A stretch of DNA of 63,581 nt, counting the filler. It is 5 parts of 5 records of this genome, joined end to end, with 100 filler letters (N's around TTAATTAATTAA, not from the genome) between each part and the next. Parts side by side here need not be neighbours in the genome. Positions count along the whole stretch, not along the records: positions 8,763 to 38,342 come from SRR20825010_33; 4 more parts are not named here. One strand, 5' to 3'. Under the pieces are notes generated by a model, which saw only the letters and a list, made by a program, of their open reading frames with translations, ran no database searches and had not been told where the DNA came from. The first letter of the stretch is position 1, and each line of letters starts with the position of its first letter. Position numbers and translations under genes: made by a program. This document shows, one piece after another, positions 1,553-55,316 of the stretch.

Positions 1553-2155
1553 TTGGAATTACGTATTAAAAATTTTATAACTGAATTTCCTTTTTTTACT
1601 GAAGAAGAGAAAAGACCATGGGAATTTACTTCTAATATAAAGCAACTCGTTTTAGATTTTCAAAAATCCTTAAATGATGATTTTATAATAGAAAATCATA
1701 TTGCTATTCATAAATCTGCTGTTATTGAAAAGGGAGCGGTACTAAAATCTCCAGGTATTATTTGTAAGAATGCTTTTGTGGGAGCTAATTCCTATTTAAG
1801 AGAAGGTTTTTTTATTGCTGAAAATGCTCATATTGGCGCCAATTGTGAAATTAAAAGTAGTTTTATAGGATCTCATTCTGCAATTGCTCATTTAAATTAC
1901 ATCGGAAATAGTATTATTGGTTCTAATGTAAATTTTGAAGCGGGATCAATAGCTGCTAATCATTATAATGAAAGAACTGATAAACAAATTTGGGTGCTTC
2001 ATAACAATGAACATATAGATACAGGAGTTACCAAATTTGGTTCTATTGTGGGAGATAGCAGTAGAGTGGGAGCTAATGCGGTACTTTCTCCAGGCACTAT
2101 TTTACCACCTCATTTTATAGTAAAACGGCTAGAACTAATTGCTCAAATACCATAA
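1553..2155 (+). CDS. Left-handed beta-helix (hexapeptide repeat) transferase, GlmU/LpxA-like
   Basis: Hexapeptide repeats (VGANSY, IGANCE, HLNYIGNSIIG). The in-frame TTG at 1553 avoids overlapping the USP gene. Confidence 0.8.
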   Translation: MELRIKNFITEFPFFTEEEKRPWEFTSNIKQLVLDFQKSLNDDFIIENHIAIHKSAVIEKGAVLKSPGIICKNAFVGANSYLREGFFIAENAHIGANCEIKSSFIGSHSAIAHLNYIGNSIIGSNVNFEAGSIAANHYNERTDKQIWVLHNNEHIDTGVTKFGSIVGDSSRVGANAVLSPGTILPPHFIVKRLELIAQIP

Positions 2156-2197
2156 ATTTTATATAACTTCACATTTATTTAATATACTTTAAATCTA

Positions 2198-2219
2198 TTA
2201 ATTGTAATATTGCAATAAA
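2198..2219 (+). promoter_or_regulatory. Putative ArsR operator 1
   Basis: Near-palindrome ATTGTAATATTGCAAT just upstream of arsR; 20/22 identical to 2601-2622. Confidence 0.7.
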
Positions 2220-2228
2220 CAAATTGAC

Positions 2229-2564
2229 ATGGGACTAACAAAGGCTGAAATTTTTTCAGAAGAACAAAATAAAATTGCTAGTATAGCAAAAGTGCTAGGG
2301 CATCCCGCTAGAGTAGCTATTTTACAATATTTATTTAAAACAAATGCCTGTGTTTGTGGAGATTTGGTTGGAGAAATCGGGCTTGCACAACCAACAATCT
2401 CTCAACACTTAAAAGAATTAAAAAATATAGGAATTATAAAAGGAACTATTGAAGGGACTAGTGTTTGCTATTGCATCAACCAAACGAACTGGGATGAAAT
2501 GGCTCATATTTTGAATCTTTTTATTAATCAATCTCCTAATATTTCTACAGGCGATTGTTGTTAG
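2229..2564 (+). CDS. arsR: ArsR/SmtB metalloregulator
   Basis: LGHPARVAIL, ACVCGDL and AQPTISQHLKELK motifs, C-terminal CC; heads the ars operon. Confidence 0.93.
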   Translation: MGLTKAEIFSEEQNKIASIAKVLGHPARVAILQYLFKTNACVCGDLVGEIGLAQPTISQHLKELKNIGIIKGTIEGTSVCYCINQTNWDEMAHILNLFINQSPNISTGDCC

Positions 2565-2600
2565 CTTGTCATTATAAATTTATGAACTTATTTAGTTTAG

Positions 2601-2622
2601 TTAATCGTAATATAGCAATAAA
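2601..2622 (+). promoter_or_regulatory. Putative ArsR operator 2
   Basis: TTAATCGTAATATAGCAATAAA, a second copy of the arsR upstream motif. Confidence 0.65.
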
Positions 2623-2651
2623 GCAATGTTTAAAATATAAAATTTTACAAA

Positions 2652-3122
2652 ATGAAATTATCAGATTTTAAAAAACACTTAAAAGGGAAAGAAAAAATAG
2701 CATTTCAATTACCAAATGGAAGTCTTGTTCCAAATCATTTCCATGTTACGGAAGTAGGCGCTATCAGTAAAAAATTCATTGATTGCGGAGGAACGTTAAG
2801 AGAAGAAAAAGTAATTAATTTTCAACTTTGGGAAGAAAATGATTACAACCATCGATTACATCCAGAAAAATTAATTCACATTATAGAGCTATCAGAGGAA
2901 AAATTAAATCTAGAAGACAACGAAATAGAAGTTGAATACCAAGGCGAAACCATCAGTAAATATGGTTTAGACATTGCAAATGGAATCTTTATGTTAACTA
3001 CTAAACAAACAGACTGTCTTGCAAAAGATGCTTGCGGAATTCCAGAAAAAAAGAAAGTAAGATTATCAGAAATCCCTATAAGCTCATCTAATTCATGCAC
3101 CCCAGGAAGTGGTTGCTGTTAA
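2652..3122 (+). CDS. DUF6428-like ars-operon protein with a Cys-rich tail
   Basis: HFHVTEVG, FIDCGG, CLAKDACG and terminal CTPGSGCC motifs; position in the operon. Confidence 0.75.
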   Translation: MKLSDFKKHLKGKEKIAFQLPNGSLVPNHFHVTEVGAISKKFIDCGGTLREEKVINFQLWEENDYNHRLHPEKLIHIIELSEEKLNLEDNEIEVEYQGETISKYGLDIANGIFMLTTKQTDCLAKDACGIPEKKKVRLSEIPISSSNSCTPGSGCC

Positions 3123-3137
3123 CCTAAATTATTAAAT

Positions 3138-3749
3138 ATGTATCCTACAATAAATAATAATATAAGTACACTAAATATTGAATCCTTATCCGAAGAACGT
3201 AAGGAATTGTTAACATCATTAATCGAATTTATCAACAATAAAGTCGCGAAAAAGGAAGCTGTTACTATAAATTTTATCTGCACCCACAACTCAAGAAGAA
3301 GTCACTTATCGCAAATTTGGGCACAAACTATGGCTCATTATTTTGGAATAGAAAATGTATTTTGTTACTCTGGAGGAACAGAAAGTACAGCTATGTTTCC
3401 TATGGTTGGTGAAACTTTGAAGCAGAGTGGGTTTCTAGTAAAAAATATTTCAGAAGGGGATAACCCAGTATATAGTATTAAATATGCCGAAAATGAACAT
3501 CCTGTAATTGCTTTTTCTAAAAAGTATGATGATGATTTTAATCCTGAATCAGGGTTTGCAGCTATAATGACTTGTTCTCAGGCAGATGGAGGCTGTCCGT
3601 TTATAGCAGGAGCAGAAAAAAGAATCCCTATTACTTATGAAGATCCAAAATTATTTGATGGAACTCCAGAACAAGCAGCAAAATATCAGGAAAGAAGCTT
3701 ACAAATAGCTACAGAAATGTATTATGTATTTTCAAAAGTCAGTAACTAA
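3138..3749 (+). CDS. arsC: Arsenate reductase, LMW-PTP fold
   Basis: [11 protein letters not shown]-loop, downstream C-x6-CP and EDP; adjacent to acr3. Confidence 0.82.
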
Positions 3750-4795
3750 TGAAGCAGTCTAAAAAATTAAGTTTTCTCGATAAAAATTTAACGCTGTGGA
3801 TTTTTGTAGCCATGGCAATAGGAGTTTTTATAGGTTATGTATATCCAAACATTTCAAATATTATAAACTCTTTTAATAGTGGTACTACAAATATCCCTAT
3901 TGCAATTGGACTCATATTAATGATGTATCCTCCTTTGGCTAAGGTTAATTATGCCTTATTGCCAAAAGTTTTTAAAAACGTAAAAGTATTATCTATTTCC
4001 TTGGTTTTAAATTGGATAATAGGCCCCTTTTTAATGTTTTTTCTAGCTATCATTTTTCTTCATGACTATCCAGAATACATGGTAGGTCTAATTTTAATTG
4101 GTCTTGCTAGGTGTATAGCTATGGTTTTAGTATGGAACGATTTAGCTGAAGGGAGTAGCGAATACGGCGCAGGATTGGTAGCCTTAAATAGTATTTTTCA
4201 GGTTTTTGGCTATAGTTTTTATGCATGGCTATTTATTACCAAATTACCACCTCTTTTCGGATTTGAAGGAGCAATCGTAGATATTTCAATAGCAACAATT
4301 GCAGAAAGTGTAGCTATTTATCTAGGAATCCCTTTTGTTTTAGGCTTTTTAAGTAGGCTAATTTTAGTTAAAATTAAAGGAGAGGAATGGTATACAAAAA
4401 AATTCATTCCTTTTATTTCTCCAATAACACTCATAGCCTTGCTATTTACCATTCTGGTTATGTTTTCATTAAAAGGAGAACTTATTGTTCAAATTCCATT
4501 TGATGTTGTATTAATAGCCATTCCATTACTCATTTATTTTACTGTAATGTTTTTTATTGGTTTTTTTGTTAGTAAAGCAAAAGGAACTCCATATGATGAG
4601 AATGTAGCTATTGCTTTTACTGCCGCAGGAAATAACTTTGAGCTTGCCATTGCTGTAGCTATTGCTGTATTTGGGTTAAATTCCGGACAAGCATTTACTG
4701 GGGTTATCGGACCATTAGTGGAAGTTCCAGCACTTATATTATTAGTAAGAGTTGCTTTTTGGCTTCGAAAAAAATATTATCCATCGCTTACTTAG
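3749..4795 (+). CDS. acr3: Arsenite efflux transporter, ACR3 family
   Basis: [30 protein letters not shown] and GPLVEVP motifs; TAATG coupling to arsC. Confidence 0.96.
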
Positions 4796-4861
4796 CTTCA
4801 GATATAAAAATGATTCACTCTATTCTAGTATAGAATAGTTAGGAATGATAACTATAAAATT

Positions 4862-4899
4862 ATTCCCCCGAGATATATACCTCGGGGGAATTTTATTAT
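4862..4899 (+). terminator. Hairpin after the ars operon, likely a terminator
   Basis: ATTCCCCCGAG-ATATATAC-CTCGGGGGAAT followed by a T-rich tract. Confidence 0.75.
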
Positions 4900-4994
4900 A
4901 TGGGTTGTTAAATTAATGCTAATATTGGGTAAGTTTTTTCTTCATCTAGAATAAAATGTAAATTAGAACAGTACAACTAAATCAAATAAAAAAA

Positions 4995-6272
4995 ATGAAA
5001 AAATTAATCTACCTTCTAGCCATTCCCTTGGTAATAGCTAGTTGTAAAAATCAAAGTAAAAATACTTCAGAAGAAACAAATGAAGTTATAAAAGATAGTA
5101 CACCAACTGTTCAAACAGCCATTGGTGAAATTGAATTACCTGCACCATTTTCTACTAGGTCTGTTTCTAGACCTAGTACAGTAATAGATTGGCCAAAAGA
5201 GAAAACTCCTACAGCTCCTGCAGGTTTTAAGGTAACTCGCTTTGCTGAAGATTTAAAACATCCTCGTTGGACGTATATTGCTCCTAATGGAGATGTTTTT
5301 GTTGCAGAAGCTAATACAAGTAAAGACAGTGCAAACAGAATTACACTACTTAGAGATACCAATGGAGATGAAAAAGTAGACGAGCAGCATATTTATCTTG
5401 AAGGGTTACACCAAAATTTAGGAATGTTGGTTTTGAATAATTATTTCTATGTAGCAAATACCGATGGATTGTATAGATATCCGTACAAAAAAGGAGCTAA
5501 TAAAATTACATCTGAAGGAGAAAAAATTGTAGATCTTCCTGCTGGCGGATACAATAATCATTGGACTAGAAATATTATTAGTAGTAAAGATGGTAGCAAA
5601 ATTTATATTTCTGTAGGTTCTGCAAGTAATGTAGGAGAACATGGAATGGAAGAAGAACAAAGACGCGCTTCTATCCTGGAAGTAAACCCTGACGGCTCTG
5701 GAGAGGAAATATATGCTAGCGGAATTAGAAACCCTGTAGGAATGGATATAAATCCTGTAACTGGAGAGTTATGGACAGCTGTTAATGAGCGTGATGGACT
5801 AGGAGATAATTTAGTACCAGATTACATTACTAGCGTTAAAAAAGGTGGTTTCTACGGTTGGCCATTTAGCTATTATGGAGCTATTAACGATCCACGTTGG
5901 GAGGAAGACCCACACCAAGATATGGTGGAAAAAACTATTATTCCTGATGTTCCTGTTGGAAGTCATACTGCTTCATTAGGTTTAACATTTTATACAGCTG
6001 ATCAATTTCCTAATAACTATAAAAATGGAGCTTTTGTAGGACAACATGGTTCTTGGAATAGAGCAAATTTTGCAGGATATAAAGTTGTATTTGTTCCTTT
6101 TAGTGATGGCAAGCCACAACAACCTCAAGATTTCTTAACCGGATTTATTGCAAATGATGAAGCTGGAGAGGTTTATGGACGTCCGGTAGACGTAACTGTA
6201 ACCCCAAAAGGTTCTTTATTAGTTAACGATGACGATGCTGGGATTATTTGGAAAGTAACTGCAGCTAATTAA
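4995..6272 (+). CDS. Sorbosone/PQQ-dependent sugar dehydrogenase family lipoprotein
   Basis: Lipobox IASC; NNHWTR, GIRNPVG, VNERD, HGSWNR and GRPV propeller motifs. Confidence 0.9.
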   Translation: MKKLIYLLAIPLVIASCKNQSKNTSEETNEVIKDSTPTVQTAIGEIELPAPFSTRSVSRPSTVIDWPKEKTPTAPAGFKVTRFAEDLKHPRWTYIAPNGDVFVAEANTSKDSANRITLLRDTNGDEKVDEQHIYLEGLHQNLGMLVLNNYFYVANTDGLYRYPYKKGANKITSEGEKIVDLPAGGYNNHWTRNIISSKDGSKIYISVGSASNVGEHGMEEEQRRASILEVNPDGSGEEIYASGIRNPVGMDINPVTGELWTAVNERDGLGDNLVPDYITSVKKGGFYGWPFSYYGAINDPRWEEDPHQDMVEKTIIPDVPVGSHTASLGLTFYTADQFPNNYKNGAFVGQHGSWNRANFAGYKVVFVPFSDGKPQQPQDFLTGFIANDEAGEVYGRPVDVTVTPKGSLLVNDDDAGIIWKVTAAN

Positions 6273-7490: not shown

Positions 7491-8324
7491 TTATTCATTT
7501 GAAGCCATTAAAGCAAAGAATTTGTTGATGTTTGGTAAAATCACAATTCTAGTTCTTCTATTTTTGGCTCTATTTTCTTTAGTTTCATTATCTACTAGCG
7601 GTTGGAAACTACTTCTTCCAGAAGCTATTAATTTTTCTGGACTTACTTCGTAATCGTTTTGAAGTTTTCTAACAACAGATGTAGCTCTTAAAACACTTAA
7701 ATCCCAGTTGTCTTGCACTTTCTCTGTATGAATACTTCTGGCATCTGTATGTCCTTCTACCATTACCTCAATACTTGGCTCAGAGTTTATAACGTCTGCA
7801 AGTTTTTGTAAAATATCGTTTGCCTTATTACTCACTCTGTAACTAGCTGTATTGAATAGTAATTTATCAGAAATAGAAATCATTACTACAGTCTCATCAA
7901 TATCAATAGCAATATCATCATCTTCATTCAAACTGCTGTTATTCATTGATTTTTGTAGATTGTAAGAGACAGCTAAATTCATTGAATCTTTTAAAGTCTT
8001 AGCCTCACTAAGTTGAGAAGGGTCTACATTTTGTAGTGTTTTACGCATTCCTCTTTTAGTTTCTTCAGAAATAACTGCTACATCGCCAACAGTAACCAAT
8101 TTACTATCGTTCTCTTCTGTTAAACTATTAATTTTACTATTGTACTCATCAACACGATTTTGAATAGCAGAGAATTTTGTTTCCAATTCTTCTTTTTCAA
8201 CTTGTGTTTTTTGTAGCTGACTTTGAAGTTCTCCTTTTTCATTCTCTAATTCCACATATTTCTTCTTCGATACACAAGAAGTTAATATTGCAATTGTAAA
8301 TAATGTTATTGCTGTTTTTTTCAT
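7491..8324 (-). CDS. OmpA/MotB-family lipoprotein
   Basis: Lipobox LTSC, coiled coil, VEGHTD, NWDLSVLRA and NRAKNRRT. Confidence 0.92.
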   Translation of the reverse strand: MKKTAITLFTIAILTSCVSKKKYVELENEKGELQSQLQKTQVEKEELETKFSAIQNRVDEYNSKINSLTEENDSKLVTVGDVAVISEETKRGMRKTLQNVDPSQLSEAKTLKDSMNLAVSYNLQKSMNNSSLNEDDDIAIDIDETVVMISISDKLLFNTASYRVSNKANDILQKLADVINSEPSIEVMVEGHTDARSIHTEKVQDNWDLSVLRATSVVRKLQNDYEVSPEKLIASGRSSFQPLVDNETKENRAKNRRTRIVILPNINKFFALMASNE

Positions 8325-10041: not shown

Positions 10042-10245
10042 ATGACTTTGCAGAGAAAGTTTGGTCAAAACGTTTCGTTGAGGCGTAAACAAATTGGCAT
10101 CTCCCAAGAGAAGCTTGCTTTGACGGCAAATATTGATCGGACTTATATCTCAAAAATTGAGAAAGGTTCAGCAAACATTACGATAGGTATAATTGAAAAA
10201 TTATCTTTGGCACTTTCTACAGAAGCTGCCGATCTATTCAAATGA
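10042..10245 (+). CDS. XRE HTH regulator resembling restriction-modification controller (C) proteins
   Basis: GISQEKLA...NIDRTYISKIEKG. A Bacteroidota -7 box (TATATTTG, 10028-10035) lies 6 nt before ATG 10042, which suggests a leaderless mRNA. Confidence 0.85.
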   Translation: MTLQRKFGQNVSLRRKQIGISQEKLALTANIDRTYISKIEKGSANITIGIIEKLSLALSTEAADLFK

Positions 10246-10254
10246 TGATAATCG

Positions 10255-10291
10255 GACAAAATGTACTTTTGTCACGGACTATCGTCTACAT
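10255..10291. promoter_or_regulatory. C-box-like operator plus adjacent inverted repeat
   Basis: Minus strand 10273-10291 reads ATGTAGACGATAGTCCGTG. GACAAAA-N5-TTTTGTC lies at 10255-10273. Confidence 0.55.
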
Positions 10292-10447
10292 TCTGACATT
10301 TTTGCGTTGTAAAAGCATGACATTCAGTCAGCTATCGCGCTAATGCCAAATTGTTGATAACTCACAAAATCCCTGTGAATAGTGGGGTATAAGGTGAGAT
10401 AAATCTGTGTGCTTGATTTTGTTAATTCCCAATGGCACAGCTATTGC

Positions 10448-10537
10448 CAAAAAGAACAGCCACCCAAACAGGCGGCTGTCATAAAGCTAACTATTATCAA
10501 TAGCCACGTTTTGACCCTAGGCATCGATAATAAAAAC
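10448..10537 (-). ncRNA. Candidate ~90-nt antisense sRNA in the CBASS leader
   Basis: Minus-strand -7 box TAAATTTG (10543-10550) and minus-strand terminator ACAGCCGCC-TGTTTG-GGTGGCTGT-TCTTTTT (10449-10479). Confidence 0.4.
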
Positions 10538-10670
10538 TGCTACAAATTTATGCGAATTTTCCTATTCTCATAATTCCGTCGCGTTCACCTTATGCTATCG
10601 CTCTGTTTCTGTGGCTCTATCCGTTAGGCGGGTAGGTAGTTTTATTTATTAATTAATTAATTCAGAAACG

Positions 10671-10799
10671 ATGAGAAAAATATTACCTCATTTTTTGTAC
10701 GTGAATGATGCTGACACGTTAAAAACTGCATCCCAGCATGGTATCAGCAATGGTGCAGGATACACAATTATTAACCTGCAATTAAAAAAGGAGAACTAG
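10671..10799 (+). CDS. 42-aa small ORF immediately upstream of the CD-NTase (not in the ORF track)
   Basis: MRKILPHFLYVNDADTLKTASQHGISNGAGYTIINLQLKKEN*. AT-rich Bacteroidota-type start context; the stop lies 1 nt before the CD-NTase ATG. Confidence 0.55.
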   Translation: MRKILPHFLYVNDADTLKTASQHGISNGAGYTIINLQLKKEN

Positions 10800-10800
10800 G

Positions 10801-11820
10801 ATGGCAACAGACAGGAATGAACACTTAGAGAAAGTTCTGGCTACTCATGATATTTCGAAAGTTGAAAATCTGAGTAAGTTCGTGGAAAAGAAGAACGGCG
10901 TAAAAAGCGCGTTGGCAACAAAGTTTTCTAAAGAGAAGGCTTCAAATCCAATTGACTCCGGCTCATACGCAAAGAAAACTGCAAATAACAACAAGTTTGA
11001 TATAGACAGTTGTATTCCTTTCAAAAAGAAAACCAAAGAAGAAGAGGACGGGTTCGGTACCTTGAGTGAAATGTTCGAAGCTGTATATGATTATCTGAAA
11101 AATGAGTATGCGGATACGGATAGCGACCTGAAGAAAGAAGATGTAAGAAAGCAAAAAGTGTCAATTGGACTGAAATTCACTATCGACGGCGAAGATTTTG
11201 ATATGGATGTCGTTCCAGGTCGAGAACGCCCAAACCATGGTGATTACAATGATAATAATACAGACCTGAGTCTTTATATCAATCCAAGTAAACGCTCAAA
11301 AAAGGAGGAGGATGAAAATAAGACGAGTATCAAAACAAACATTAAGACACATGTTGATTTGCTGTCAGGTGCAGGGCGTAAACATGAACGCAAAGTAGCC
11401 AGACTTTTAAAGGTTTGGAAAACTGAAAGAAAGGAACAGAATGGTGGTAAGTTGATCAAATCCTTCATGATGGAACTTTATACCAAGGAAGCATTTGACA
11501 ATAACTCAGATGACATTCCCAATGGGATATGGAATAAGGTCAAAATGGTCATGAATCATATTGTCGAAAATATTGAGACGAATAATCTTGTTGATCCAGC
11601 AAATTCGTCAAATGTTGTGTCTGATTCAATGAGTGATACTGCAAAAACAGATACGAAGCGAGAAATGAAGAAGACAATTAAGGAAATTGATGAGGATTCT
11701 GATAAAATTAAAGAATACTTTCCTGTCAATGATGATTACGACAACGACGACGACGACGGGAGCGGTAATGGGGGAACAGGGCTTGGGGCATCTCAGTTAA
11801 GCACTAATAGTTTCGGTTGA
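10801..11820 (+). CDS. CBASS CD-NTase (cGAS/DncV-like nucleotidyltransferase) 1
   Basis: SGSYAKKTA...FDID, RKQKVSIGL, DMDVVPG, RLLKVWK and LVDPANSSN motifs; flexible tail ending NSFG. Confidence 0.92.
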   Translation: MATDRNEHLEKVLATHDISKVENLSKFVEKKNGVKSALATKFSKEKASNPIDSGSYAKKTANNNKFDIDSCIPFKKKTKEEEDGFGTLSEMFEAVYDYLKNEYADTDSDLKKEDVRKQKVSIGLKFTIDGEDFDMDVVPGRERPNHGDYNDNNTDLSLYINPSKRSKKEEDENKTSIKTNIKTHVDLLSGAGRKHERKVARLLKVWKTERKEQNGGKLIKSFMMELYTKEAFDNNSDDIPNGIWNKVKMVMNHIVENIETNNLVDPANSSNVVSDSMSDTAKTDTKREMKKTIKEIDEDSDKIKEYFPVNDDYDNDDDDGSGNGGTGLGASQLSTNSFG

Positions 11821-11821
11821 A

Positions 11822-13975
11822 ATGAGTGAGTTATTAGAAACAGTAAAGTCTTTATGCAGCAATGACAGTTCAATAAAAGTTATTGTAGACTTTGTTGTTC
11901 AAGATTATTGGGTAGTTGGAAAAATAAGTATTGATTGTTTAGGTACAACGGTGCCTTTTAATGTAGAGATACCAACCAACTATCCATTAACTAATCCTAA
12001 TACGGATAACATTTCTATACGTTTCTACAATGAAGACCTAATCGGATTTAATCATATTAATCCGGACGGCTCTGTCTGCTTTCACCCTGAAAAGGATGAT
12101 AATATTGAGCGAAAATTTTTGTCGGAAATAGAAGGAGTTAAAAACTGGATAAACAAATATCTAATTCAAGGTATAGAGGACGAACGTTATACATACATAA
12201 TACATGACATTGACTATAGTAAAAGGCACAAGTTCTTTTTTACAAATGTTGATCTCAAATTTAAACCTGGAATGTATGGACATTTTGTCTATTCCATCCG
12301 TGATGAGACAACTTTTAGTAGAAAAGATCGTGGTGTTGACGTAGAAGTAAAAAGTATGTATCGAATTGGAATTGAATATTCTACTGACTATTGGTCTGCT
12401 CAATTTTCAGGAGATTTATTTGATGACAATCATTTTATCGGCGCATGGTATTTCTTAGATGAGGAACCTGTTGTAAAAGGTGATTCAAACAGAAGAAAAG
12501 GAATAACATCTTGGGATCAATTTAAAGGACTCCTTAGTGATGAGTTTATTAAGTATCTATATGATGGGTTGAGACGGGATTTTGGTAAAAATTATCTAAA
12601 CGATGGTTTCATTTATATTTCCTTTGGTTATAAAATACCCAACAACGAAGGGTATGAAGTGCATTGGGATTTATTAAAAGTACCTGCGGATCAGAATCCA
12701 ATTCAAACGGAGTTGATACCATTAGAGCAACGAACTTCAATGAATAAATACAGAGGTGTATTGACAGATCAAAAAACGCTATGGGTAGAAACTGAAAATG
12801 CCGACTATTCTCGGTTCTTTGGGCGTGGAAAATTAAGTAAGTCCATTACGGAAAGTCATATTCTTATCGTTGGTTGTGGTGCTTTAGGAAGTATGCTGGC
12901 GGAAAACCTTGTAAGAGGTGGTGCAAGGTCTTTGATACTTGAGGATTTTGATAAAGTGGAAATCGGAAATTTATGTAGAGCAAATTTTGATCTTGACAGA
13001 GTAAGTTTTCAAAAAGTAGAAGCTCTTAAGCGAAGGTTGAGTTCCATATCGCCATTTGTTTCCATAAATCAAGTAGATGTTAAGATGAACATTTTTGATC
13101 CTGAGAAATTGAAGGGGCTTCTAGATGAGAATATCGATATAATCTTTGATTGTTCAACGGACTCCGAATTGTTACACATTTTAGATGGCATTAATTATCA
13201 AGGAAAAGTTTTTAGTCTTGGAATTACTAATAAGGCCAAAGCACTTGCTTGCGTCAGTGGTGACATGCTAACTGAGAAAAAACATCACTTGTTTAATCTT
13301 CTTGAAAACGAACCTGCTGATTTCTTTGAAGGAACGGGGTGTGGTTACCCAACATTTGAGGCTAGTTATAATGATGTTAGCACTTTGCTGAATATCGCAG
13401 TCAACAAAATCAACAGAATCCTACAAGCGCAAAATGAATACTCATCTTTTGTAACAACTATTAGGGATAGTGAATCGTGCCTACAGTTTGACACAGTAGA
13501 ATATCTTCGCTATAAATCCGATCAACGTGAGAGGCTCATATATGTTTCAAAACTTGCGCTATCCAGAATGGAAGAAGAGTTAGTAAAGTATTATCCAAAT
13601 GAGTTTGGTGGAGTTTTAGTTGGGGCACGGTATAAAGGAGTATTAATGATTTCTGACATACTAGTTCCTGATGAGTATGAGAATGGTCGTACAAAATTCG
13701 TGAGGCATCCGGGGTCACTTAATGATAGATTAGAAAAGCTTTTTAACGAATCGAACGGTAGGATTGAATATTTGGGAGAATGGCATTCCCATCCTGACCA
13801 AAATGCTGTTCCAAGCAATGAAGATTTACGTACTATGCACTTGATAGCGGAGGACAAAAAAATAAACACAAATTCTCCAATATTACTTATAGGGGAAACA
13901 AGAAAGGACTCAATGAGTCCAAGGATCTATATGATAGACAGTAAAAAATTGATTGAATATGAGCGGGAAAATTGA
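11822..13975 (+). CDS. E2-E1-JAB fusion (Cap2 + Cap3 in one chain)
   Basis: E2: HINPDGSVCFH. E1/ThiF: IVGCGALGS, DFDKVEIGNLCR, GTGCGYPTF. JAB: EFGGVLVG...GEWHSHP...PSNED. Confidence 0.92.
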   Translation: MSELLETVKSLCSNDSSIKVIVDFVVQDYWVVGKISIDCLGTTVPFNVEIPTNYPLTNPNTDNISIRFYNEDLIGFNHINPDGSVCFHPEKDDNIERKFLSEIEGVKNWINKYLIQGIEDERYTYIIHDIDYSKRHKFFFTNVDLKFKPGMYGHFVYSIRDETTFSRKDRGVDVEVKSMYRIGIEYSTDYWSAQFSGDLFDDNHFIGAWYFLDEEPVVKGDSNRRKGITSWDQFKGLLSDEFIKYLYDGLRRDFGKNYLNDGFIYISFGYKIPNNEGYEVHWDLLKVPADQNPIQTELIPLEQRTSMNKYRGVLTDQKTLWVETENADYSRFFGRGKLSKSITESHILIVGCGALGSMLAENLVRGGARSLILEDFDKVEIGNLCRANFDLDRVSFQKVEALKRRLSSISPFVSINQVDVKMNIFDPEKLKGLLDENIDIIFDCSTDSELLHILDGINYQGKVFSLGITNKAKALACVSGDMLTEKKHHLFNLLENEPADFFEGTGCGYPTFEASYNDVSTLLNIAVNKINRILQAQNEYSSFVTTIRDSESCLQFDTVEYLRYKSDQRERLIYVSKLALSRMEEELVKYYPNEFGGVLVGARYKGVLMISDILVPDEYENGRTKFVRHPGSLNDRLEKLFNESNGRIEYLGEWHSHPDQNAVPSNEDLRTMHLIAEDKKINTNSPILLIGETRKDSMSPRIYMIDSKKLIEYEREN

Positions 13976-14780
13976 AATAAAGGAGTTGTTTAAGGGATTG
14001 CAAGATCAAATGACTTCTCAGTTAAACACTAATAGGGATTTTATTAAGCATCCCGGAAGCAAAGGAGACTCACTGGAGAACACTTGGATAGAATGGCTTA
14101 GCAATTATCTCCCCAACCGTTACTGCGTTGACAAGGCTATAGTTGTAGATTCTAAAGGAAACCTAAGTGATCAACTTGATTTAGTTATCTATGACCAAAC
14201 GTTTACACCATTTGTTTTTAAACAAAATGGTATAATGTATATTCCGGCAGAGGGAGTCTATGCTGTTTTTGAAGTTAAGCCAGACCTTTCGAAGGAGTAT
14301 ATTGAATATGCTGGAAATAAAATTGAAAGTGTTAGAAAGTTGTACCGAACTTCAACCTCAATAATTGACGTAGGAGTTAAGAGAAATGCAAGGCCGTTAA
14401 CTCAAATTCTTGGTGGAATCTTGGCAAGTGAAAGTAAAATTAAAACTGAAAAGACCATTACTTCACACGTCCAATCTTTGAAAGGTTTTGAAGGAATTGA
14501 CATTGGGTGTGCTGTAGACTTTGGGACGTTCTATGTGGATTATAGGGAATCATATACACCTTCCGGGACATTAGTAGTTTCTGATATGAATAAAGAAATT
14601 TCGGAATACTATTCCACGAGGACAATTGATAAGGTTCATTTCAGTGATAAGGAAAATTCTCTGGTAGCATTTTTTTTACAACTGATGAGATACCTTCAGC
14701 AGAGCATTGGCACAGTAGCAGCAATTGATTTGAACGAATATTCAAAAGCAATTGGTTTTACAATTGACAAAGAGCTTTAA
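13959..14780 (+). CDS. nucC: NucC-family cyclic-oligonucleotide-activated endonuclease
   Basis: HPGSKGDSLE..W, YLPNRY, SDQLDLVIYD, IPAEGVYAVFEVK, KIESVRKLYRTS and GTVAAID closely follow E. coli NucC as recalled. The ATG at 13959 overlaps the upstream gene. Confidence 0.92.
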   Translation: MSGKIEIKELFKGLQDQMTSQLNTNRDFIKHPGSKGDSLENTWIEWLSNYLPNRYCVDKAIVVDSKGNLSDQLDLVIYDQTFTPFVFKQNGIMYIPAEGVYAVFEVKPDLSKEYIEYAGNKIESVRKLYRTSTSIIDVGVKRNARPLTQILGGILASESKIKTEKTITSHVQSLKGFEGIDIGCAVDFGTFYVDYRESYTPSGTLVVSDMNKEISEYYSTRTIDKVHFSDKENSLVAFFLQLMRYLQQSIGTVAAIDLNEYSKAIGFTIDKEL

Positions 14781-14792
14781 TATCCAACCCTT

Positions 14793-15857
14793 ATGAAGAA
14801 AACCGTTAAATATGCTGGTCGTGGAGCATTAATTGTAGGCATTGGTAATGCGTTGTTAAATGCTATTCAGCAATTAAATTCAATTGATGAAAACCCAGAA
14901 AAAGAATTTGATTGGGGGGAATTGGTATTGGCTGGAGGAAAAGGCGCGCTGACTGGTGCTGCCGGCGGGGCTGTTGTTGGTGGTATTTTGGATTACCAGA
15001 ACTCTAAGGAGGCTCCGCTGAATACCAGTGCCATAATTAATACAATCGTTTCAGATTTGACACTCGATAAGACGAGTTCGGAATATATCTTTTTATCTAG
15101 AAAGGCAGATAATCTCATTAAAATTATTGAACGGGAGTTTCAACGAGAGCTTGGTGGGCATCTTTTAAAAATTGGCTCGACGGAAGATGGAACAGCTCTG
15201 AACTACGATTTTGATATTGATATTAGTGTTCCATTCAGTCCGAATAGCTTTTCATCAGTTGAAGTAATGTATAATGACGTGTATGATTTTTTGAATCGTT
15301 CATACAGCGACGAACATTTGAATATAATTCGAAAGCAAGGAAAATCAATAGGTCTGATTTACACTTACCGTGGTGAAGTAATGAAGATTGACATTGTACC
15401 TTATAAGCAAAGTCGAAATGCAAATAATAAGACAACTGGATATTTGTATGTTAACAAGAATTCTTTGTTTGAGCCAAATGGCTACACCAAAACGGACATT
15501 AGGGCCTTAAAAGCTATCAGTCTCAGTAATAGCCAACAGAAAATTCTAATTGTACTTAAAAACTGGAAAGAAACTAGATCTGTGCCAATTGGCTCGCATC
15601 TTTTGAAGTTATTTATTCTTGATGCTTATGCTGTAAATCGAGGTAATATTCCAGGTCGTTTAACCGATAAGGTAATAATGGTTCTATCTCATATTGAAAG
15701 TGGGATTATGACAAGACGAATCGTAAGTGCTGAGAATACGAATAACGTTTTAACTGACCTTTCCAAAGATAGAAAGAGAGAAATTGTATTGGAATGCAAA
15801 CGGTTACTAGATGATTACGAGTATCAACCAAACTCGATTTTGAAGTATTTGGAATGA
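14793..15857 (+). CDS. Second CD-NTase-like nucleotidyltransferase with an N-terminal glycine-zipper/hydrophobic extension
   Basis: IGSTEDGTA...FDIDISVPF, RKQGKSIGL, KIDIVP, LKNWK and ENTNNV motifs; N-terminal GKGALTGAAGGAVVGG. Confidence 0.85.
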   Translation: MKKTVKYAGRGALIVGIGNALLNAIQQLNSIDENPEKEFDWGELVLAGGKGALTGAAGGAVVGGILDYQNSKEAPLNTSAIINTIVSDLTLDKTSSEYIFLSRKADNLIKIIEREFQRELGGHLLKIGSTEDGTALNYDFDIDISVPFSPNSFSSVEVMYNDVYDFLNRSYSDEHLNIIRKQGKSIGLIYTYRGEVMKIDIVPYKQSRNANNKTTGYLYVNKNSLFEPNGYTKTDIRALKAISLSNSQQKILIVLKNWKETRSVPIGSHLLKLFILDAYAVNRGNIPGRLTDKVIMVLSHIESGIMTRRIVSAENTNNVLTDLSKDRKREIVLECKRLLDDYEYQPNSILKYLE

Positions 15858-23873: not shown

Positions 23874-25679
23874 TTACTCTTTAATGATTTTTTGAGTCAT
23901 TTTTGAGTTTCCAACTGTTAACTCAATTAAGTAAATTCCTTTTGAAGCATCGCTAATATCAATTTGATCATTCACGCTACCTCCAGTGTATGTTTTTTGA
24001 ACGATCACACGTCCTTGAACATCAACAAGTCTTACGTTAACTGAAGCTGTAGAAGTTCCTTTGAAATCTAAAGTAAACACACCGTTATTTGGATTCGGGT
24101 AAACTGTGAATCCAGCTGACAATGATGATTCATCTAATCCTGCACAAGCATCAATATACATTGAAGTTGAATCTGAGTTTGTACATCCAGAAGTATCTGT
24201 GTAAGAATAAGTGATCCAGTTGTATCCTTGAACGCCTAATGAAGGGTCAAAGTTATTTCCTGAGATTCCCGTTCCAGAGTAAATCCCCGAAGCTGGCGTT
24301 CCAGCTGGCAATGTTACTGGACTGCTGTAAGCACAAAGCGTATCTTCTAGGAACGAAGCCAAAGTAACCGTTGGCAAAGGAAGAACTGTAACATCAAACG
24401 ATATACTGTCAGCATTTCCTGACCCATCTGTAGCGATGTACCAAACAGTTGTAACTCCAACGTTAAATGTACTTCCATTTGCATCACCTGATCCAGAACC
24501 AGTTGTTGCACCAGAGAGTGTGTGAGTGATAACTTCTCCACCACATGGGTCTACTGCAGTTACAGAAATTCCAGAAACAACAGGATCACAACTTTGAACG
24601 TTTGCAATTGGATCAATTACTGGAGCCAATGTATCAATAACAGTTACCGTAAAGTTACATGTCATTGTATCTGATGGTGTTACTGTTACAAGGTATGTTT
24701 CAGTTGTTGTTCCAACTGGGAAAGAACTTCCAGAACCTAACCCTCCGATGAGTGTTGTTGGAGCAGGAATAATTACTGTGAAAATCACCATTCCATTCCC
24801 AGAATTCACACCAGACAAGTTGTTTGGATTTGTTCCATTATTAAGGGAACCACCTCCGCCGCCATTAGCAGCACCAGTAGAATTTGATCCAGATCCTCCA
24901 CCAGAGTATCCGCCGCCACCGCCGCCGACTTGGTTTCCAGAACCGTTTCCGCCGCCGCCGAAGCCACCAACACCATAACCGATATTCGCACCAGCTCCAC
25001 CATTTACAAAGGCAAAACCACCAGAACCTGCAGACCAACCGTCAGCACCATTGGTAAAGAAACCTCCACCAGCACCTGAAGCAAATGATGCACCTACAGA
25101 ACCACCATTACCTAGTGTTCCGCCAGCACCGCCACCTCCACCGCCAGCTGCACCAGCTGTAGTGATTTGTCCGTGCTTTCCAATCCAATCAACTCCTCCT
25201 GATGCACCAGCACCACCGCCAGCGATGATTAATGGGTTCCCACTTACGGCATCCACCACAAATGTTCCACCACCACCACCGTTTCCAGCGTTGTTGTTTT
25301 CACCAACCAAAACATTTAAAACTTGACCAGGAGTTACAGCGAAATCACCAATCATAATTGCTCCTAAACCTTCAGTAACGCTTGATCCACCAGCACCATT
25401 TCCACCTGATGCTCCTCTTGTTTCAATAGTCAAACTTGTAATTCCAGCAGGAACTGTCCATTGTGTGATTGCTCCTGAAAATACAATTGTATCTGTGACG
25501 GATTGACAAGCATCAAAGCCTTGAGGGGCAGTGTAAGTGAAAAGTGTACCGCATGATCCTGAATCTGCATAGGCAGTGACATTCGAAGGACAAGTGATCT
25601 CGGCGCATTGCGACCAAGCACTCATTGAAAAGGCGACTGAGGCAAATGCCAAGCCTGTTTTTGTAATAATTGTTCTCAT
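23874..25679 (-). CDS. T9SS cargo: glycine-rich domain, HYR domains and a type A C-terminal sorting domain
   Basis: Signal peptide, poly-Gly segments, FPVGTTT/FNVGVTTV HYR motifs and VYPNP...GIYLI...KIIKE. Confidence 0.9.
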   Translation of the reverse strand: MRTIITKTGLAFASVAFSMSAWSQCAEITCPSNVTAYADSGSCGTLFTYTAPQGFDACQSVTDTIVFSGAITQWTVPAGITSLTIETRGASGGNGAGGSSVTEGLGAIMIGDFAVTPGQVLNVLVGENNNAGNGGGGGTFVVDAVSGNPLIIAGGGAGASGGVDWIGKHGQITTAGAAGGGGGGAGGTLGNGGSVGASFASGAGGGFFTNGADGWSAGSGGFAFVNGGAGANIGYGVGGFGGGGNGSGNQVGGGGGGYSGGGSGSNSTGAANGGGGGSLNNGTNPNNLSGVNSGNGMVIFTVIIPAPTTLIGGLGSGSSFPVGTTTETYLVTVTPSDTMTCNFTVTVIDTLAPVIDPIANVQSCDPVVSGISVTAVDPCGGEVITHTLSGATTGSGSGDANGSTFNVGVTTVWYIATDGSGNADSISFDVTVLPLPTVTLASFLEDTLCAYSSPVTLPAGTPASGIYSGTGISGNNFDPSLGVQGYNWITYSYTDTSGCTNSDSTSMYIDACAGLDESSLSAGFTVYPNPNNGVFTLDFKGTSTASVNVRLVDVQGRVIVQKTYTGGSVNDQIDISDASKGIYLIELTVGNSKMTQKIIKE

Positions 25680-38442: not shown

Positions 38443-38975
38443 GCGTCGATTAAACCAGCCTGCAATGCCCCCACCATTCGAATGGGCGGCACCACTTCAA
38501 AACGTACATCGTGATCAGGGTCCACATCGTTTAATCGCAGCCAGCGACGAAGCTGCAAAGTGTGCATGGAAAACGGAAACACCGTTCCAAAAACCATGGT
38601 CCGTTCGTCGCGCGACTTGCCCGCCCTTAACACCGAACCAAGCGTTTGGCCCTGCACCAAACTGGCCAGCACACCGGCCAGTTGCTTGTTCACGGTGATG
38701 GCATTGCCACCCCGATTCAGCACCACAGGGGCCAGCACATCTTTTCTGGGCGAACCGCCCAAACCCAATTGCAACGCAATCGCCATGGGCGAAAGCATGT
38801 GCGCAGCATCAATTTCCCCAAACGCCAGCTTGTCGCGCAGCGTGGCCCAGGAAGGCTGCTTGACCAAACGCACCGACAAATTTTCGGCCTGGAAAAAATC
38901 CATGTGCTGGGCCACCACAAAGGGTGCAGAATCGGTCAGCGCAATCACACCAATGCGAATGTCCTGCTGCATCAC
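38443..38975 (-). CDS. NrtA/CmpA-like nitrate-binding protein (NasS-like), 3' truncated
   Basis: IALTDSAP, SWATLRDKL..GEIDAAHML and VFPFSMH motifs; no signal peptide; overlaps the ANTAR gene. Confidence 0.82.
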
Positions 38976-39595
38976 ACACCACCCCCGCCCAACATTTCAA
39001 ACACCTCGATCACACTGCGTGCGGTGTCTGCCAACCGTTGATTGCGTTCCATGGCCAGCTTGCGCATGGCGTGGTAGGCCTCGTCTTCGTTGAAATTGCG
39101 GTGCTTCATCAGCAAACCTTTTGCCTTGTCGATCAACTTGCGATCGGCCAGTTGATCCCGGGTTTTCTGAAGTTCATTTTTCAGGGCCTGAAATTCCCGA
39201 AACCGCGCCACCGCCACTTGAACAATGGGGCGCACCCGCTCGGGGTTCATGCCATCGGCCACATACGCGCTCACCCCCGCCCGGATTGCACTGGCAATCG
39301 TGTCCTCATTGTCTTCATCAGAAAACATGATGACGGGCTTTGGGTTGCTGCGCGACAGCACCGCCATGTTTTCCAGACAATCGCGATCGGGTGAATCAAT
39401 GTCAACGATCACAATGTCGGGCTGCGACACAGCCACGTGCTCGGCCAGCCGGTCCGCGGAACTTAAGCGCGACACCAGCACATACCCGGCATCAAGCAAG
39501 GCGCGTTCCAGGATCGCAGCGCGCCCCGGTTCTTCGTCAACCAGAAGTACTTTTAGTGCGGGCGTATTGGCTTTGCCTGGCTTGGTATTTGACAT
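38972..39595 (-). CDS. nasT: ANTAR response regulator (NasT-like)
   Basis: REC domain plus RKLIDKAKGLLM...EDEAYHAMRKLAM. Confidence 0.85.
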   Translation of the reverse strand: MSNTKPGKANTPALKVLLVDEEPGRAAILERALLDAGYVLVSRLSSADRLAEHVAVSQPDIVIVDIDSPDRDCLENMAVLSRSNPKPVIMFSDEDNEDTIASAIRAGVSAYVADGMNPERVRPIVQVAVARFREFQALKNELQKTRDQLADRKLIDKAKGLLMKHRNFNEDEAYHAMRKLAMERNQRLADTARSVIEVFEMLGGGGV

Positions 39596-39612
39596 GGGTG
39601 CGGTACAAATCC

Positions 39613-40248
39613 TTAAGGAGCAAGACGGGATATTGTCCATGAATCGCCCTGCCGCGTGTAGGCCAACCGATCATGAAGGCGCGAAGGCCGCCCCTGCCAG
39701 AATTCAAAAAAATCGGGCACCAAACGGTAACCGCCCCAAAATGGTGGCCGGGTTTGCGGGTCGCCCTGCTGTTCGGCCTGGGCCTGTTGCACCTTGGCCT
39801 CCAATACTTGCCGCGACTCAATCACCTGGCTTTGCGGTGAAGCCCATGCCCCCAGGCGGCTGCCTGCGGGGCGGGACAAGTAATATGCATCCGATTCCTC
39901 GGCGCTGCACTTTTCAACCCGCCCTTCAATACGTACCTGGCGTTCAAGTTCAGTCCAGTGGAACAAAATGGCTGCATGTGGATTGTCCGCCAGTTCCTGC
40001 CCCTTGCGGCTTTCATAATTGGTGAAAAACGTAAACCCCCGGTCGTCCAGCCCCTTGATCAGCACAATGCGTGCAGACGGCCTGCCCTGGGCATTCACGG
40101 TGGCCAGGGTCATTGCGTTGGGTTCTGGCAGTTTTGCATGCAGGGCTTGGTTAAACCACTGCCTGAAAAAATCGAAGGGATTGGCCAAGGCATCGGCCTC
40201 ATCCAAGGTGGCTTGTGTGTAATCTTTACGCAGGTCTGCAATCGACAT
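39613..40248 (-). CDS. pdxH: Pyridoxine/pyridoxamine 5'-phosphate oxidase
   Basis: [26 protein letters not shown] and [13 protein letters not shown] motifs; start MSIADL at 40248. Confidence 0.96.
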
Positions 40249-40316
40249 AAAACGAAAACTCCCGGGTGCTGCCAAAGGTATGATGACCTTTATTTTCACA
40301 CGTCGCCAGCACCAGA

Positions 40317-41216
40317 ATGAAGAACAATGCCGATCTGATTGATGAATTCTGCACCACTTTGTGGCTTGAAGAAGGATTGGCCAAAGCCACACTACAGGCC
40401 TACCGCAGCGACCTTCAACAACTGGCAAACTGGCTGGAAGAACAATTTTCTGAAAACCTGCTGCAAACCAACAGCGAACACATCCGCAACCACGTACACA
40501 ATTTGCTGGAATTGAAACCCAGCAGCCTGAATAGAAAAACAAGCAGCTACAAACGGTTTTACCTGTGGCTAAACACCACCAAACAACGTGAAGACAACCC
40601 CTGCGCGCAACTACAAAGCGCCAAACAAGGCTTGCGAATACCCAAAACCCTGAGCGAACAGCAAATGCTGAACCTGCTTGCTGCGCCCAATGTAGGCAAT
40701 GCCGCGGGCCAACGCGACAAAGCCATGCTTGAATTCATGTATGCCAGCGGCCTGCGTGTCAGTGAACTGGTCAACATGCCATTGCGGGCCGTTGACCTGA
40801 ATGCCGGGGCAGTGAAGGTACTGGGAAAAGGCAACAAGGAAAGGCTGGTACCCATGGGCGAACCCGCAAGGCTGGCGATTGCGCTTTACCTGCAACAGGC
40901 ACGCGGCGAACTACTGAAAGCAAAAACCAGTGATTATTTATTCGTAACCCACTTTGGCAAACCAATGACCCGGCAAGGCTTCTGGAAAAACATCAAACGA
41001 CTTGCCCTGATTGCAGGAATTAATTCCCCCATCAGCCCACATGTGTTGCGCCACGCATTTGCAAGCCACTTGATCAACCACGGTGCCGATTTGCGCGTTG
41101 TACAGCTGCTGCTCGGCCATGCCGACATTGGCACCACCCAGATTTACACCCACGTGGCCAAAGAACACCTGCACAGCCTGCTCAACCAAAGCCATCCACG
41201 GTCAAAAAGTCGATAA
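40317..41216 (+). CDS. xerD: Tyrosine recombinase XerD
   Basis: [28 protein letters not shown] and [16 protein letters not shown] motifs. Confidence 0.93.
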
Positions 41217-41251
41217 AATCGACGCCAAAGCTAAACAACAAGGAGACACCT

Positions 41252-41863
41252 TTGCTTAATTTTGCTGCTGGCCTGTTGGTCGCCTACCTGATCGGCTCTA
41301 TTTCCTTTGCCGTGGTGGTGTCCAAATTCGTGGGGCTTGCTGACCCCCGCACCTATGGTTCCAAAAACCCCGGTGCCACCAACGTGCTGCGAAGCGGCAA
41401 CAAAAAAGCGGCAATACTTACCCTGCTGGGCGATGCACTGAAAGGCACCCTGGCCGTGGCACTGGCCTTTCATTTTCAAGACCAGTTGGGCTACACCCGC
41501 AGCGACATTGCCTGGATCGGCCTGGCCGCTTTTGTTGGGCATCTGTACCCCATCTTTTTCAGGTTTGAAGGCGGCAAAGGCGTTGCCACCGCACTGGGCG
41601 TGCTGCTGGGCCTGAACCTGGTTCTTGGCCTGGCCACTGCTGTAACGTGGATTGTGATTGCCTACTTTTTCCGCTACTCATCGCTAGCCGCGCTAATTGC
41701 CAGCTTGTTCGCTGCGTTCTACAACGTATTGCTGTTTGGCGTGAACGGCCAAGCCGCAGCCATTGCCATTATGTCTGCATTGCTTGTTTACCGGCACAAA
41801 CAGAATATTGCAAACCTGATCGAAGGCAAGGAAAGCAAAATTGGTGAAAGCAAAAAAAAGTGA
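41252..41863 (+). CDS. plsY: Glycerol-3-phosphate acyltransferase
   Basis: GSKNPGATN, GGKGVAT and RHKQNI motifs. Confidence 0.95.
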   Translation: MLNFAAGLLVAYLIGSISFAVVVSKFVGLADPRTYGSKNPGATNVLRSGNKKAAILTLLGDALKGTLAVALAFHFQDQLGYTRSDIAWIGLAAFVGHLYPIFFRFEGGKGVATALGVLLGLNLVLGLATAVTWIVIAYFFRYSSLAALIASLFAAFYNVLLFGVNGQAAAIAIMSALLVYRHKQNIANLIEGKESKIGESKKK

Positions 41864-41918
41864 ACTTTACATCGAATAGAGTGTACTCAAATAGATAGCC
41901 ACCCTATCGGAGAGTGCC

Positions 41919-44879: not shown

Positions 44880-44908
44880 CCCGCCTCTTGCCATCTTGGT
44901 TATTCCAA

Positions 44909-44950
44909 AAAAGAAACCCCAAACCTAATCGGTTATTGGGGTTTCTTTTA
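44909..44950. terminator. Bidirectional terminator
   Basis: AAAAGAAACCCCAA...TTGGGGTTTCTTTT between convergent genes. Confidence 0.8.
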
Positions 44951-45348
44951 TTGTTTCCTTGTGTCGTAAAACTGCGCCATCGCCAGCGCAGTATGCCCAG
45001 CCTTTTTTCCCTTCGCCTTGGCAATTTCTTGCGGGCTACCCTGCGCCACCAATTGGCCACCGCCAATGCCCGCCTCAGGGCCCATGTCGATTACCCAGTC
45101 GGCCTGGGCAATCAAATCCAGGTCGTGTTCAATTACCACCACGGTGTGCCCGGCATCCACCAACCTGTGCAGCACGGCAATCAGTTTTTCCACGTCGTTC
45201 ATGTGCAGGCCCACGGTGGGTTCGTCCAGCACATACAAAGTGGGCGGGCTCATTTGCACGCCGGCTTTGTTTTCTCGTACCTTTACAAGTTCAGTCACCA
45301 ACTTGATCCGTTGTGCTTCACCACCACTCAGGGTGGGGCTGGGTTGGC
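44948..45348 (-). CDS. uvrA: UvrA-family excinuclease ATPase, C-terminal fragment
   Basis: [31 protein letters not shown] and [11 protein letters not shown] motifs. Confidence 0.9.
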
Positions 45349-45448
45349 NNNNNNNNNNNNNNNNNNNNNNNNNNNNNNNNNNNNNNNNNNNNTTAATTAA
45401 TTAANNNNNNNNNNNNNNNNNNNNNNNNNNNNNNNNNNNNNNNNNNNN
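45349..45448. other. Artificial contig linker
   Basis: N-run + TTAATTAATTAA + N-run. Confidence 0.99.
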
Positions 45449-48526: not shown

Positions 48527-48607
48527 CTGGAATAATTCAGCTTTTTTTCCTCTTGCATCCACCAACCTGTCAAATAATGCTATAAATTATTGACTCAATT
48601 GAATGTT

Positions 48608-55278: not shown

Positions 55279-55316
55279 GTGCCGGGCATTATTGAGCTGG
55301 CGGTTGGGGCAGGGGA

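Follow-up and report, generated by a model that had tools for sequence, protein, structure and literature searches.

The stretch of DNA analysed here, 63,581 nucleotides (nt) with filler included and referred to as a whole as the window, carries a four-gene operon of CBASS, an antiphage signaling system based on cyclic oligonucleotides. A CBASS operon is usually taken to consist of a single cyclase, regulators in some cases, and at least one effector. This operon ends in a second cyclase, cyc2, a cGAS/DncV-like nucleotidyltransferase (CD-NTase) which bears a unique hairpin and which we find behind the effector gene in operons of types II and III as well as in E2-only ones. In the reading that we favor, and on which we place about even weight, cyc2 would be an additional synthase whose product is also the signal made by the primary cyclase, probably cyclic tri-AMP. 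The parts of the locus are the following.

10801..11820, plus strand: gene 1, the primary CD-NTase (cyc1), 339 amino acids, matched by PADLOC model PDLC00803
11822..13975, plus strand: gene 2, a fused Cap2-Cap3 (E2-E1-JAB), 717 amino acids, matched by PADLOC model PDLC00827
13959..14780, plus strand: gene 3, the NucC endonuclease effector, 273 amino acids from ATG 13959 or 275 from TTG 13953
14793..15857, plus strand: gene 4, the second CD-NTase (cyc2), 354 amino acids
14793..15014, plus strand: N-terminal hairpin of cyc2, residues 1-74, seen as helices in the AlphaFold2 (AF2) model and by its conserved glycines
15015..15857, plus strand: CD-NTase domain of cyc2, residues 75-354, plus the stop codon, recognized by VIA-align, Foldseek and profile match
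10671..10799, plus strand: a 42-codon open reading frame (ORF), probably no gene, with no family match and no relative in related loci

The four gene identities proposed by an earlier, sequence-only reading of this DNA were borne out by PADLOC, Pfam and solved-protein matches far beyond chance, and all four genes do possess the intact catalytic motifs that it described. Its spacings were correct as well: 1 nt separates genes 1 and 2 (11821) and 12 nt separate genes 3 and 4 (14781-14792), while genes 2 and 3 overlap by 17 nt, given a start of gene 3 at ATG 13959. The start of the operon has to be moved, as it had been placed at 10671, where a separate frame opens that differs from the frame of gene 1 and terminates with TAG 10797-10799, just short of 10801 by a single base. 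This 42-codon ORF matched nothing in Pfam or PADLOC, and its best tblastn hit across 50 related loci had an E value of 3.7. Because the frame stops early and lacks both a family match and a relative in related loci, we place the start of gene 1 at ATG 10801. Judged by its sequence, this operon belongs to type II CBASS, with every defining feature open to such a test present, and none of the four contiguous genes of the window operon matches the HORMA or TRIP13 proteins of type III systems.

We were particularly interested in gene 4. The AF2 model of cyc2, computed with an alignment of 81 sequences, has a predicted local distance difference test score (pLDDT) of 94 and a predicted template modeling score (pTM) of 0.84. 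Its residues 75-354 superimpose on Bacteroides fragilis CdnB (7ljo) with a VIA-align Z score of 24.0 and a root-mean-square deviation (rmsd) of 2.6 over 259 residues, spanning residues 1-284 of the 290 in that chain. Other CD-NTases gave Z scores of 22 (CdnC) and about 21-22 (DncV and CdnD), and the top Foldseek match was CdnC 6u7b (1.1e-10). At the sequence level, the cyc2 family profile is closest among solved proteins to CdnC of Escherichia coli MS115-1 (6p80; 4.5e-12), the cyclase of a NucC system, and the GS, DxD and DIVP motifs of the profile line up with those of CdnC. The corresponding active-site motifs of cyc2 itself are GS 128-129, DID 141-143 and D200. Throughout the 81 sequences, which reach down to 21% identity, no variation was seen at G128, S129, D141, D143, K256 and N315, while at least 90% keep D200, the third aspartate. 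The PADLOC model of gene 1, PDLC00803, matches gene 4 more weakly (1.5e-34) and over residues 81-345 only, and cyc2 proteins share about 27-30% identity with the primary cyclase next to them.

By homology and predicted structure, cyc2 is a complete CD-NTase fold with a conserved catalytic core, and it is apparently an active enzyme. Since the catalytic center is complete and conserved and the nearest characterized relatives are synthases, the simplest reading is that cyc2 makes the signal that the effector reads. Co-folding of two cyc2 copies scored 0.00, a value that carries no weight in either direction on self-association.

Gene 4 is distinguished by its N-terminal hairpin, a feature that the sequence-only reading had overlooked. 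The AF2 model shows residues 1-74 as a pair of helices of 30 residues each (3-33 and 41-71; pLDDT 81-95), with a glycine content of 14% and a GxxxG zipper at G51, G55, G59 and G63. The zipper positions G51, G55 and G59 are kept in at least 90% of the 81 sequences, as is the polar Q27 within the helices; two further polar residues there, N23 and K50, are kept in at least 90% of 26 sequences. None of the solved CD-NTases in the VIA-align comparison covers the hairpin, the ESM Atlas returned no usable match to it, and word-based searches found it (as residues 1-78) in no shorter or longer protein, the latter being weak evidence. With 17.2 bits (E 0.0042), the match to the Pfam family Gly-zipper_YMGG stayed under the cut-off of 28.9, as did that to Gly-zipper_OmpA with 10.8 (cut-off 27), and we use the apparent likeness to glycine zippers as a description only.

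The glycine-rich zipper and the weak similarity to Gly-zipper_YMGG would suit a rather different role for cyc2, that of a second effector whose hairpin damages the membrane once the NTase-like domain has bound the signal. A preprint does name CBASS operons of this two-effector kind, such as VvCdnG09-CapV-Cap5. Nevertheless, we consider this role improbable: the invariant GS and DxD motifs and the near-invariant third aspartate indicate catalysis beyond binding, the hydropathy of the hairpin, though borderline, lies under the usual cut-off for a transmembrane segment, the conserved Q27, N23 and K50 place polar residues within its helices, and AF2 attaches it rigidly to the rest of the protein. 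If cyc2 is an add-on synthase, as we favor, the hairpin would be an element for its control or localization. Tentatively, and with more doubt than belief, we picture cyc2 as an accessory CBASS enzyme of a new class, a hairpin-controlled CD-NTase that is turned on either by the primary signal or when the system fires, perhaps at the membrane, and that then amplifies the signal.

The family to which cyc2 belongs comprises at least 155 protein clusters at E<=1e-5, and an exhaustive search recovered 340 cluster representatives at E<=1e-3. The 120 matches listed have lengths of 309-375 amino acids and a query coverage of 87-100%, and those relatives that are named are hypothetical proteins of Bacteroidota. 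In the 21 close pairs, of 22 listed, for which a ratio of nonsynonymous to synonymous substitution rates (dN/dS) was obtained, it ranged from 0.04 to 0.28; for the hairpin alone, dN was smaller than dS in 22/22 listed pairs. Thus, the Bacteroidota family of cyc2 is large and evolves under purifying selection. Its carriers are rare, however one samples around G001, the genome containing the related locus L001: 2/401 genomes across the phylum and 2/87 in the order. Scanning viral contigs with alignment A1 yielded no relative, and neither the plasmid nor the E. coli collections contained DNA near-identical to the locus.

Signs of decay do occur in this family. The cyc2 gene of L041 has an in-frame stop (7678-7681), and in L046 only the last 86 residues are left (1679-1936), beside an unrelated gene of 337 amino acids. 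One might thus regard cyc2 as a decaying duplicate with no role, a notion that is hardly credible to us in view of the at least 155 full-length family members and the 340 representatives of the wider search, the low dN/dS, the invariant catalytic residues, and a genomic position that was kept in each of 37 loci.

Related loci were gathered from reference genomes (5), metagenomes (39) and, in addition, whole-genome searches, and were annotated by PADLOC and tblastn. The gene upstream of cyc2 is visible in 37 loci, which were not de-duplicated and represent about 30 distinct ones; seven more cyc2 loci, L046 among them, are fragments without upstream sequence. One test set by the sequence-only reading was whether the second NTase co-occurs with homologues of this operon, and so it does: cyc2 directly follows the effector in 37/37 loci, this effector being NucC in 33 and a Mem_03 membrane effector in 4 (L007 2520-3272, minus strand; L027 1693-2550; L030 22-813; L038 6224-6982; all called by PADLOC). 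The Mem_03 proteins are ~250-285 amino acids long and, according to PADLOC, combine two transmembrane segments with a globular domain. The one from L007, the sole one scanned with Pfam, also carries a Nucleotidyltransferase-Associated Rossmannoid Fold (NARF).

Wherever a cyc2 locus extends far enough upstream, a primary cyclase is present (29/29). The accompanying regulators are Cap2 plus Cap3 in 15 of these loci, an E2-only Cap2 in 7, and HORMA plus TRIP13 in 7. HORMA and TRIP13 genes are seen, for example, in L012 and L032, and the primary cyclases of the HORMA-TRIP13 loci fall into another class, PDLC00808, with 20-23% identity to gene 1. The exact arrangement of the window operon, with a fusion protein of 715 amino acids, was found again in L015, and the match pattern predicts the same four-gene layout for L016, L019, L036, L041 and L045. 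Given that cyc2 occurs with three different sets of regulators, with primary cyclases of two classes and with either of two unrelated effectors, a specific protein partnership seems unlikely, and its coupling to the system would be via the signal alone. A pair of effector and cyc2 without a primary cyclase was seen in 0/29 loci, which argues that cyc2 depends on the primary system and favors a booster over a self-sufficient sensor.

The same pattern can be read in another way, namely that cyc2 is a nucleotidyltransferase which changes cyclic tri-AMP or produces a ligand competing with it, thereby setting the threshold for firing or shielding the host from the effector of its own system. In favor of this, cyc2 lies beside the effector in 37/37 loci, was found in 0/29 loci without a primary cyclase, is exchangeable among systems that have only their signal in common, and conserves its catalytic residues. 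All closest relatives of cyc2 by sequence and by fold are synthases, though, and two operons that lack cyc2 altogether (L003 and L005) indicate that the effector needs no antidote. In addition, we know of no enzyme with a CD-NTase fold that modifies a cyclic oligonucleotide. On balance, we regard a modifier as rather unlikely.

Not all second cyclases look like cyc2. In the type II CBASS operon L057 of genome G411 (cyclase, Cap2, Cap3, NucC), the same position is taken by a second cyclase of 268 amino acids (2000-2806, minus strand; PDLC00803 1.1e-64) that has neither the hairpin nor a C-terminal tail. There are thus two or more forms of second cyclase downstream of NucC.

For the phylogenetic relationship of the two cyclases, we turned to a joint tree, which was built with a quick method and came with long-branch warnings. 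In this tree, 29 of 30 cyc2 sequences form one clade, supported by a value of 99 in the Shimodaira-Hasegawa-like approximate likelihood ratio test (SH-aLRT); the exception, from L007, sits on a very long branch. The clade adjoins the PDLC00803-type primary cyclases, far from the type III cyclases, and within it the cyc2 proteins of type III loci are interspersed among those linked to type II. Having a clade of its own in which members from both types mix, cyc2 is an old paralogue, and one that has passed from system to system. As its origin, a tandem duplication of gene 1 in recent times was considered and rejected, cyc2 being an old separate clade. Likewise rejected was the idea of NucC and cyc2 as one co-inherited module, as the correlations between pairwise identities were weak and alike for all pairs.

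Both the separate clade (29/30 sequences, SH-aLRT 99) and the low identity to the neighboring primary cyclase would favor a different, second signal made by cyc2, to be read by NucC in a different manner or by a receptor encoded elsewhere. The sequence-only reading had similarly suggested two signals. However, the operons have a single effector each, a comparison of 25 loci revealed no conserved gene downstream of cyc2, and the cyc2 profile is nearest to the cyclase of a NucC system. The NucC proteins of the two operons without cyc2 (L003 and L005) moreover nest within the NucC of cyc2 operons (99* branch), from which it would follow that cyc2 does not change the ligand. Together with the presence of cyc2 alongside two very different classes of primary cyclase, the single effector and this nesting lead us away from two signals, and we see a different product of cyc2 as improbable, on a par with the role as second effector.

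The three genes ahead of cyc2 provide the framework in which an add-on synthase would have to operate. Gene 1 is matched by PDLC00803 with 1.6e-68, and the solved sequence nearest to it is again E. coli MS115-1 CdnC (6p80; 2.5e-5). Its active-site motifs are GS 54-55, DID 67-69 and DMD 134-136, and the protein ends in an acidic, low-complexity, glycine-rich tail (...NSFG). A C-terminal FG is present in 15/16 of the primary cyclases listed from full Cap2 plus Cap3 loci, the window included. Cap2 reportedly conjugates cyclases via a C terminus ending in Gly or Ala, and the FG ends would fit such Cap2-mediated conjugation. The FG tail is missing from 30/30 cyc2 sequences, so cyc2 is probably not a Cap2 substrate of the FG type. 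Other tails are seen elsewhere: primary cyclases of E2-only operons (L001, L013, L024, L028, and L009, which is without cyc2) end in ...G(V/I)(V/I)xKPW(C/S/I)xx instead of FG, and those of type III operons in ...FGP(S/T)FQI.

Gene 2 aligns with the PADLOC E1-E2 model PDLC00827 almost from end to end (4.3e-208; protein residues 6-714 of 717, model positions 7-708 of 711), and its residues 563-715 match the JAB model PDLC00890 (1.7e-34). Pfam recognizes ThiF at 339-446 (4.6e-21) and Prok-JAB at 580-693 (4.5e-13), so that the Cap3 JAB/JAMM isopeptidase forms the C-terminal part of the gene 2 protein; the match to Enterobacter cloacae Cap2 (7to3) has an E value of 5.8e-19. Its motifs comprise the E2-type HINPDGSVC at 78-86, which we take to be the HxNx5C motif, the E1 glycine loop GCGALGS at 351-357, a cysteine motif, GTGCGYP, at 504-510, and the JAB signature HxHx7Sx2D at 655-668. 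By sequence comparison, the fused Cap2-Cap3 is an already known form, a PADLOC model from 2023 spanning the whole protein, and NCBIfam uses the name "cap2_3" for a protein of another system (NF058523).

Gene 3 matches the PADLOC NucC model PDLC00745 (1.2e-94), Pfam DUF6602 (3.1e-32) and NucC of E. coli MS115-1 (6p7o; 2.1e-45), with its D...EVK aligned to D...EAK of the latter. It has the motifs LDLVIYD (73-79) and EVK (105-107), and its nuclease core is of the PD-(D/E)xK kind, a homologue of that in E. coli NucC. A review gives cyclic tri-AMP (cAAA) as the NucC ligand, and by homology this molecule would activate gene 3.

Taken together, our favored reading would run as follows. The primary cyclase, gene 1, would be controlled via its C-terminal glycine by the fused Cap2-Cap3, and its signal, most likely cyclic tri-AMP, would switch on the DNA endonuclease NucC. 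As an active CD-NTase paralogue, cyc2 would add to the signal pool read by NucC and meet the rest of the system solely through this diffusible signal, an add-on beside a regulated primary cyclase. As to when it would do so, cyc2 may be a booster that supplies additional or feed-forward signal after the system has fired, a proposal we make with clear reservations; that it serves as an independent second trigger strikes us as unlikely, and as less likely than the booster.

Several observations weigh against this reading. The activity of cyc2, the identity of its product, its role as a booster and the role of its hairpin are what we infer, and the proposal of a same signal draws on there being one effector per operon and on the two cyc2-less NucC sequences. 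A cyc2 able to make the NucC ligand by itself would predict type I pairs of effector and cyc2, of which we saw none, a result that fits a booster but equally a modifier or a regulator. The operons L003 and L005 end at NucC without cyc2, and carriers of a PDLC00803-type cyclase do without a second cyclase in 2/4 cases of a phylum sample and 1/4 of an order sample; as operons of the same types thus occur without it, cyc2 must be dispensable. The pairwise identities of cyc2, NucC and cyc1 correlate weakly (rho 0.25-0.33), suggesting that cyc2 has no special tie to any one partner and that all three parts shuffle. L036, for instance, combines a close cyc1 (72%) and cyc2 (56%) with a distant NucC (42%). 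As for the hairpin, its best 19-residue Kyte-Doolittle window reaches 1.37, borderline but under the usual 1.6, with family means of 1.26 and 1.38 and a range of 0.45-2.26, and the linker that attaches it rigidly in the AF2 model has a pLDDT of 91.

Among known systems, the type II CBASS of E. cloacae, CdnD-Cap2-Cap3-Cap4 (7to3), shares with the window operon a glycine-tailed cyclase, E2 plus E1, a JAB protein and a nuclease effector; the window differs in having Cap2-Cap3 as one polypeptide, NucC instead of Cap4, and a hairpin cyclase after the effector. The type III system of E. coli MS115-1, CdnC-HORMA-TRIP13-NucC (6p80, 6p7o), which presumably has one cyclase, as deposited, shares NucC, and among solved sequences its CdnC comes nearest to each of the two cyclases of the window operon. 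While the window lacks HORMA and TRIP13, 7 of the related cyc2 loci are of this very type. Viewed in isolation, NucC followed by cyc2 resembles a two-gene unit of cyclase and effector such as XpCdnC03-NucC, named as a type I CBASS pair in a preprint (10.1101/2023.05.21.541620); it differs in that cyc2 has a hairpin and that cyc2 and its effector never occurred without a primary cyclase.

The sequence-only reading had considered the architecture atypical. Because PADLOC models span each of the proteins end to end, type II CBASS with NucC and with a fused Cap2-Cap3 is already catalogued, which removes two of the three features behind that view. The third, the second cyclase, stands as a recurrent feature for which we found no description. 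We searched the literature for CBASS with two cyclases and for glycine-zipper CD-NTases and found neither described, although the text or supplementary tables of the major surveys may mention such operons. As far as we have searched, a recurrent second cyclase with a hairpin is apparently undescribed.

Some related operons have additional genes. In L026, a DUF772 transposase gene (3712-5349, minus strand) lies between Cap2 and Cap3, with NucC and cyc2 still present, and 901-1122 of the same locus, upstream of the operon, encodes a 73-residue DUF2188 protein. Further upstream genes encode a WYL-WCX protein in L013 (3424-4431), a helix-turn-helix (HTH) protein with M78 peptidase in L014 (2270-3328, minus strand) and an M78 peptidase in L001 (3546-4337, minus strand); these three resemble the CBASS transcription regulators CapW and CapH/CapP. 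Directly upstream of the window operon there is no WYL-WCX, HTH or M78 regulator. The ~690 nt ahead of the operon (10108-10800) hold no ORF of at least 100 amino acids, and terminator-like hairpins lie at 10455-10480 (minus strand) and 10616-10636 (plus strand). Promoter and terminator scans gave hits at chance level only.

The window is a mosaic in its guanine-plus-cytosine (GC) content, which is about 30-40% over the first 38 kb, rises to 48-57% at 39-45 kb, and is 54-58% in the final part that starts at about 55 kb, directly after a tRNA-Gly (54691-54766). Genes in the GC-rich parts (38900-45400 and 54900-63581) specify a response regulator with an ANTAR domain, a tyrosine recombinase (40317-41216), histidine kinases of the PAS type and an EAL protein; a search of the window for rRNA came back empty. 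Horizontal transfer or a chimeric assembly could account for this mosaic. A protein with the C-terminal sorting domain of the type IX secretion system (T9SS; Por_Secre_tail) at 23874-25679 (minus strand) fits a Bacteroidota host, as do the relatives of cyc2. At 46892-49882, a FAN1-HTH/VRR-NUC nuclease adjoins a glycosyltransferase with an additional match to 'GT4-conflict', the Pfam family for group 4 glycosyltransferases of conflict systems, and the two may constitute another defense-related pair.

If cyc2 does boost the signal or acts as a second trigger, it would add a new regulatory layer to cGAS-like immunity and a possible answer to the sponges and nucleases with which phages counter CBASS; the suggestion of the sequence-only reading that the second cyclase might be a backup against such phage proteins is compatible with an add-on synthase. 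As an amplifier, cyc2 would constitute a positive-feedback stage which may render the suicide decision all-or-none and allow the signal to outrun phage sponges and nucleases. With about 350 amino acids, a clear catalytic knock-out, and natural operons both with and without it, the cyc2 family offers a compact test case for these ideas.

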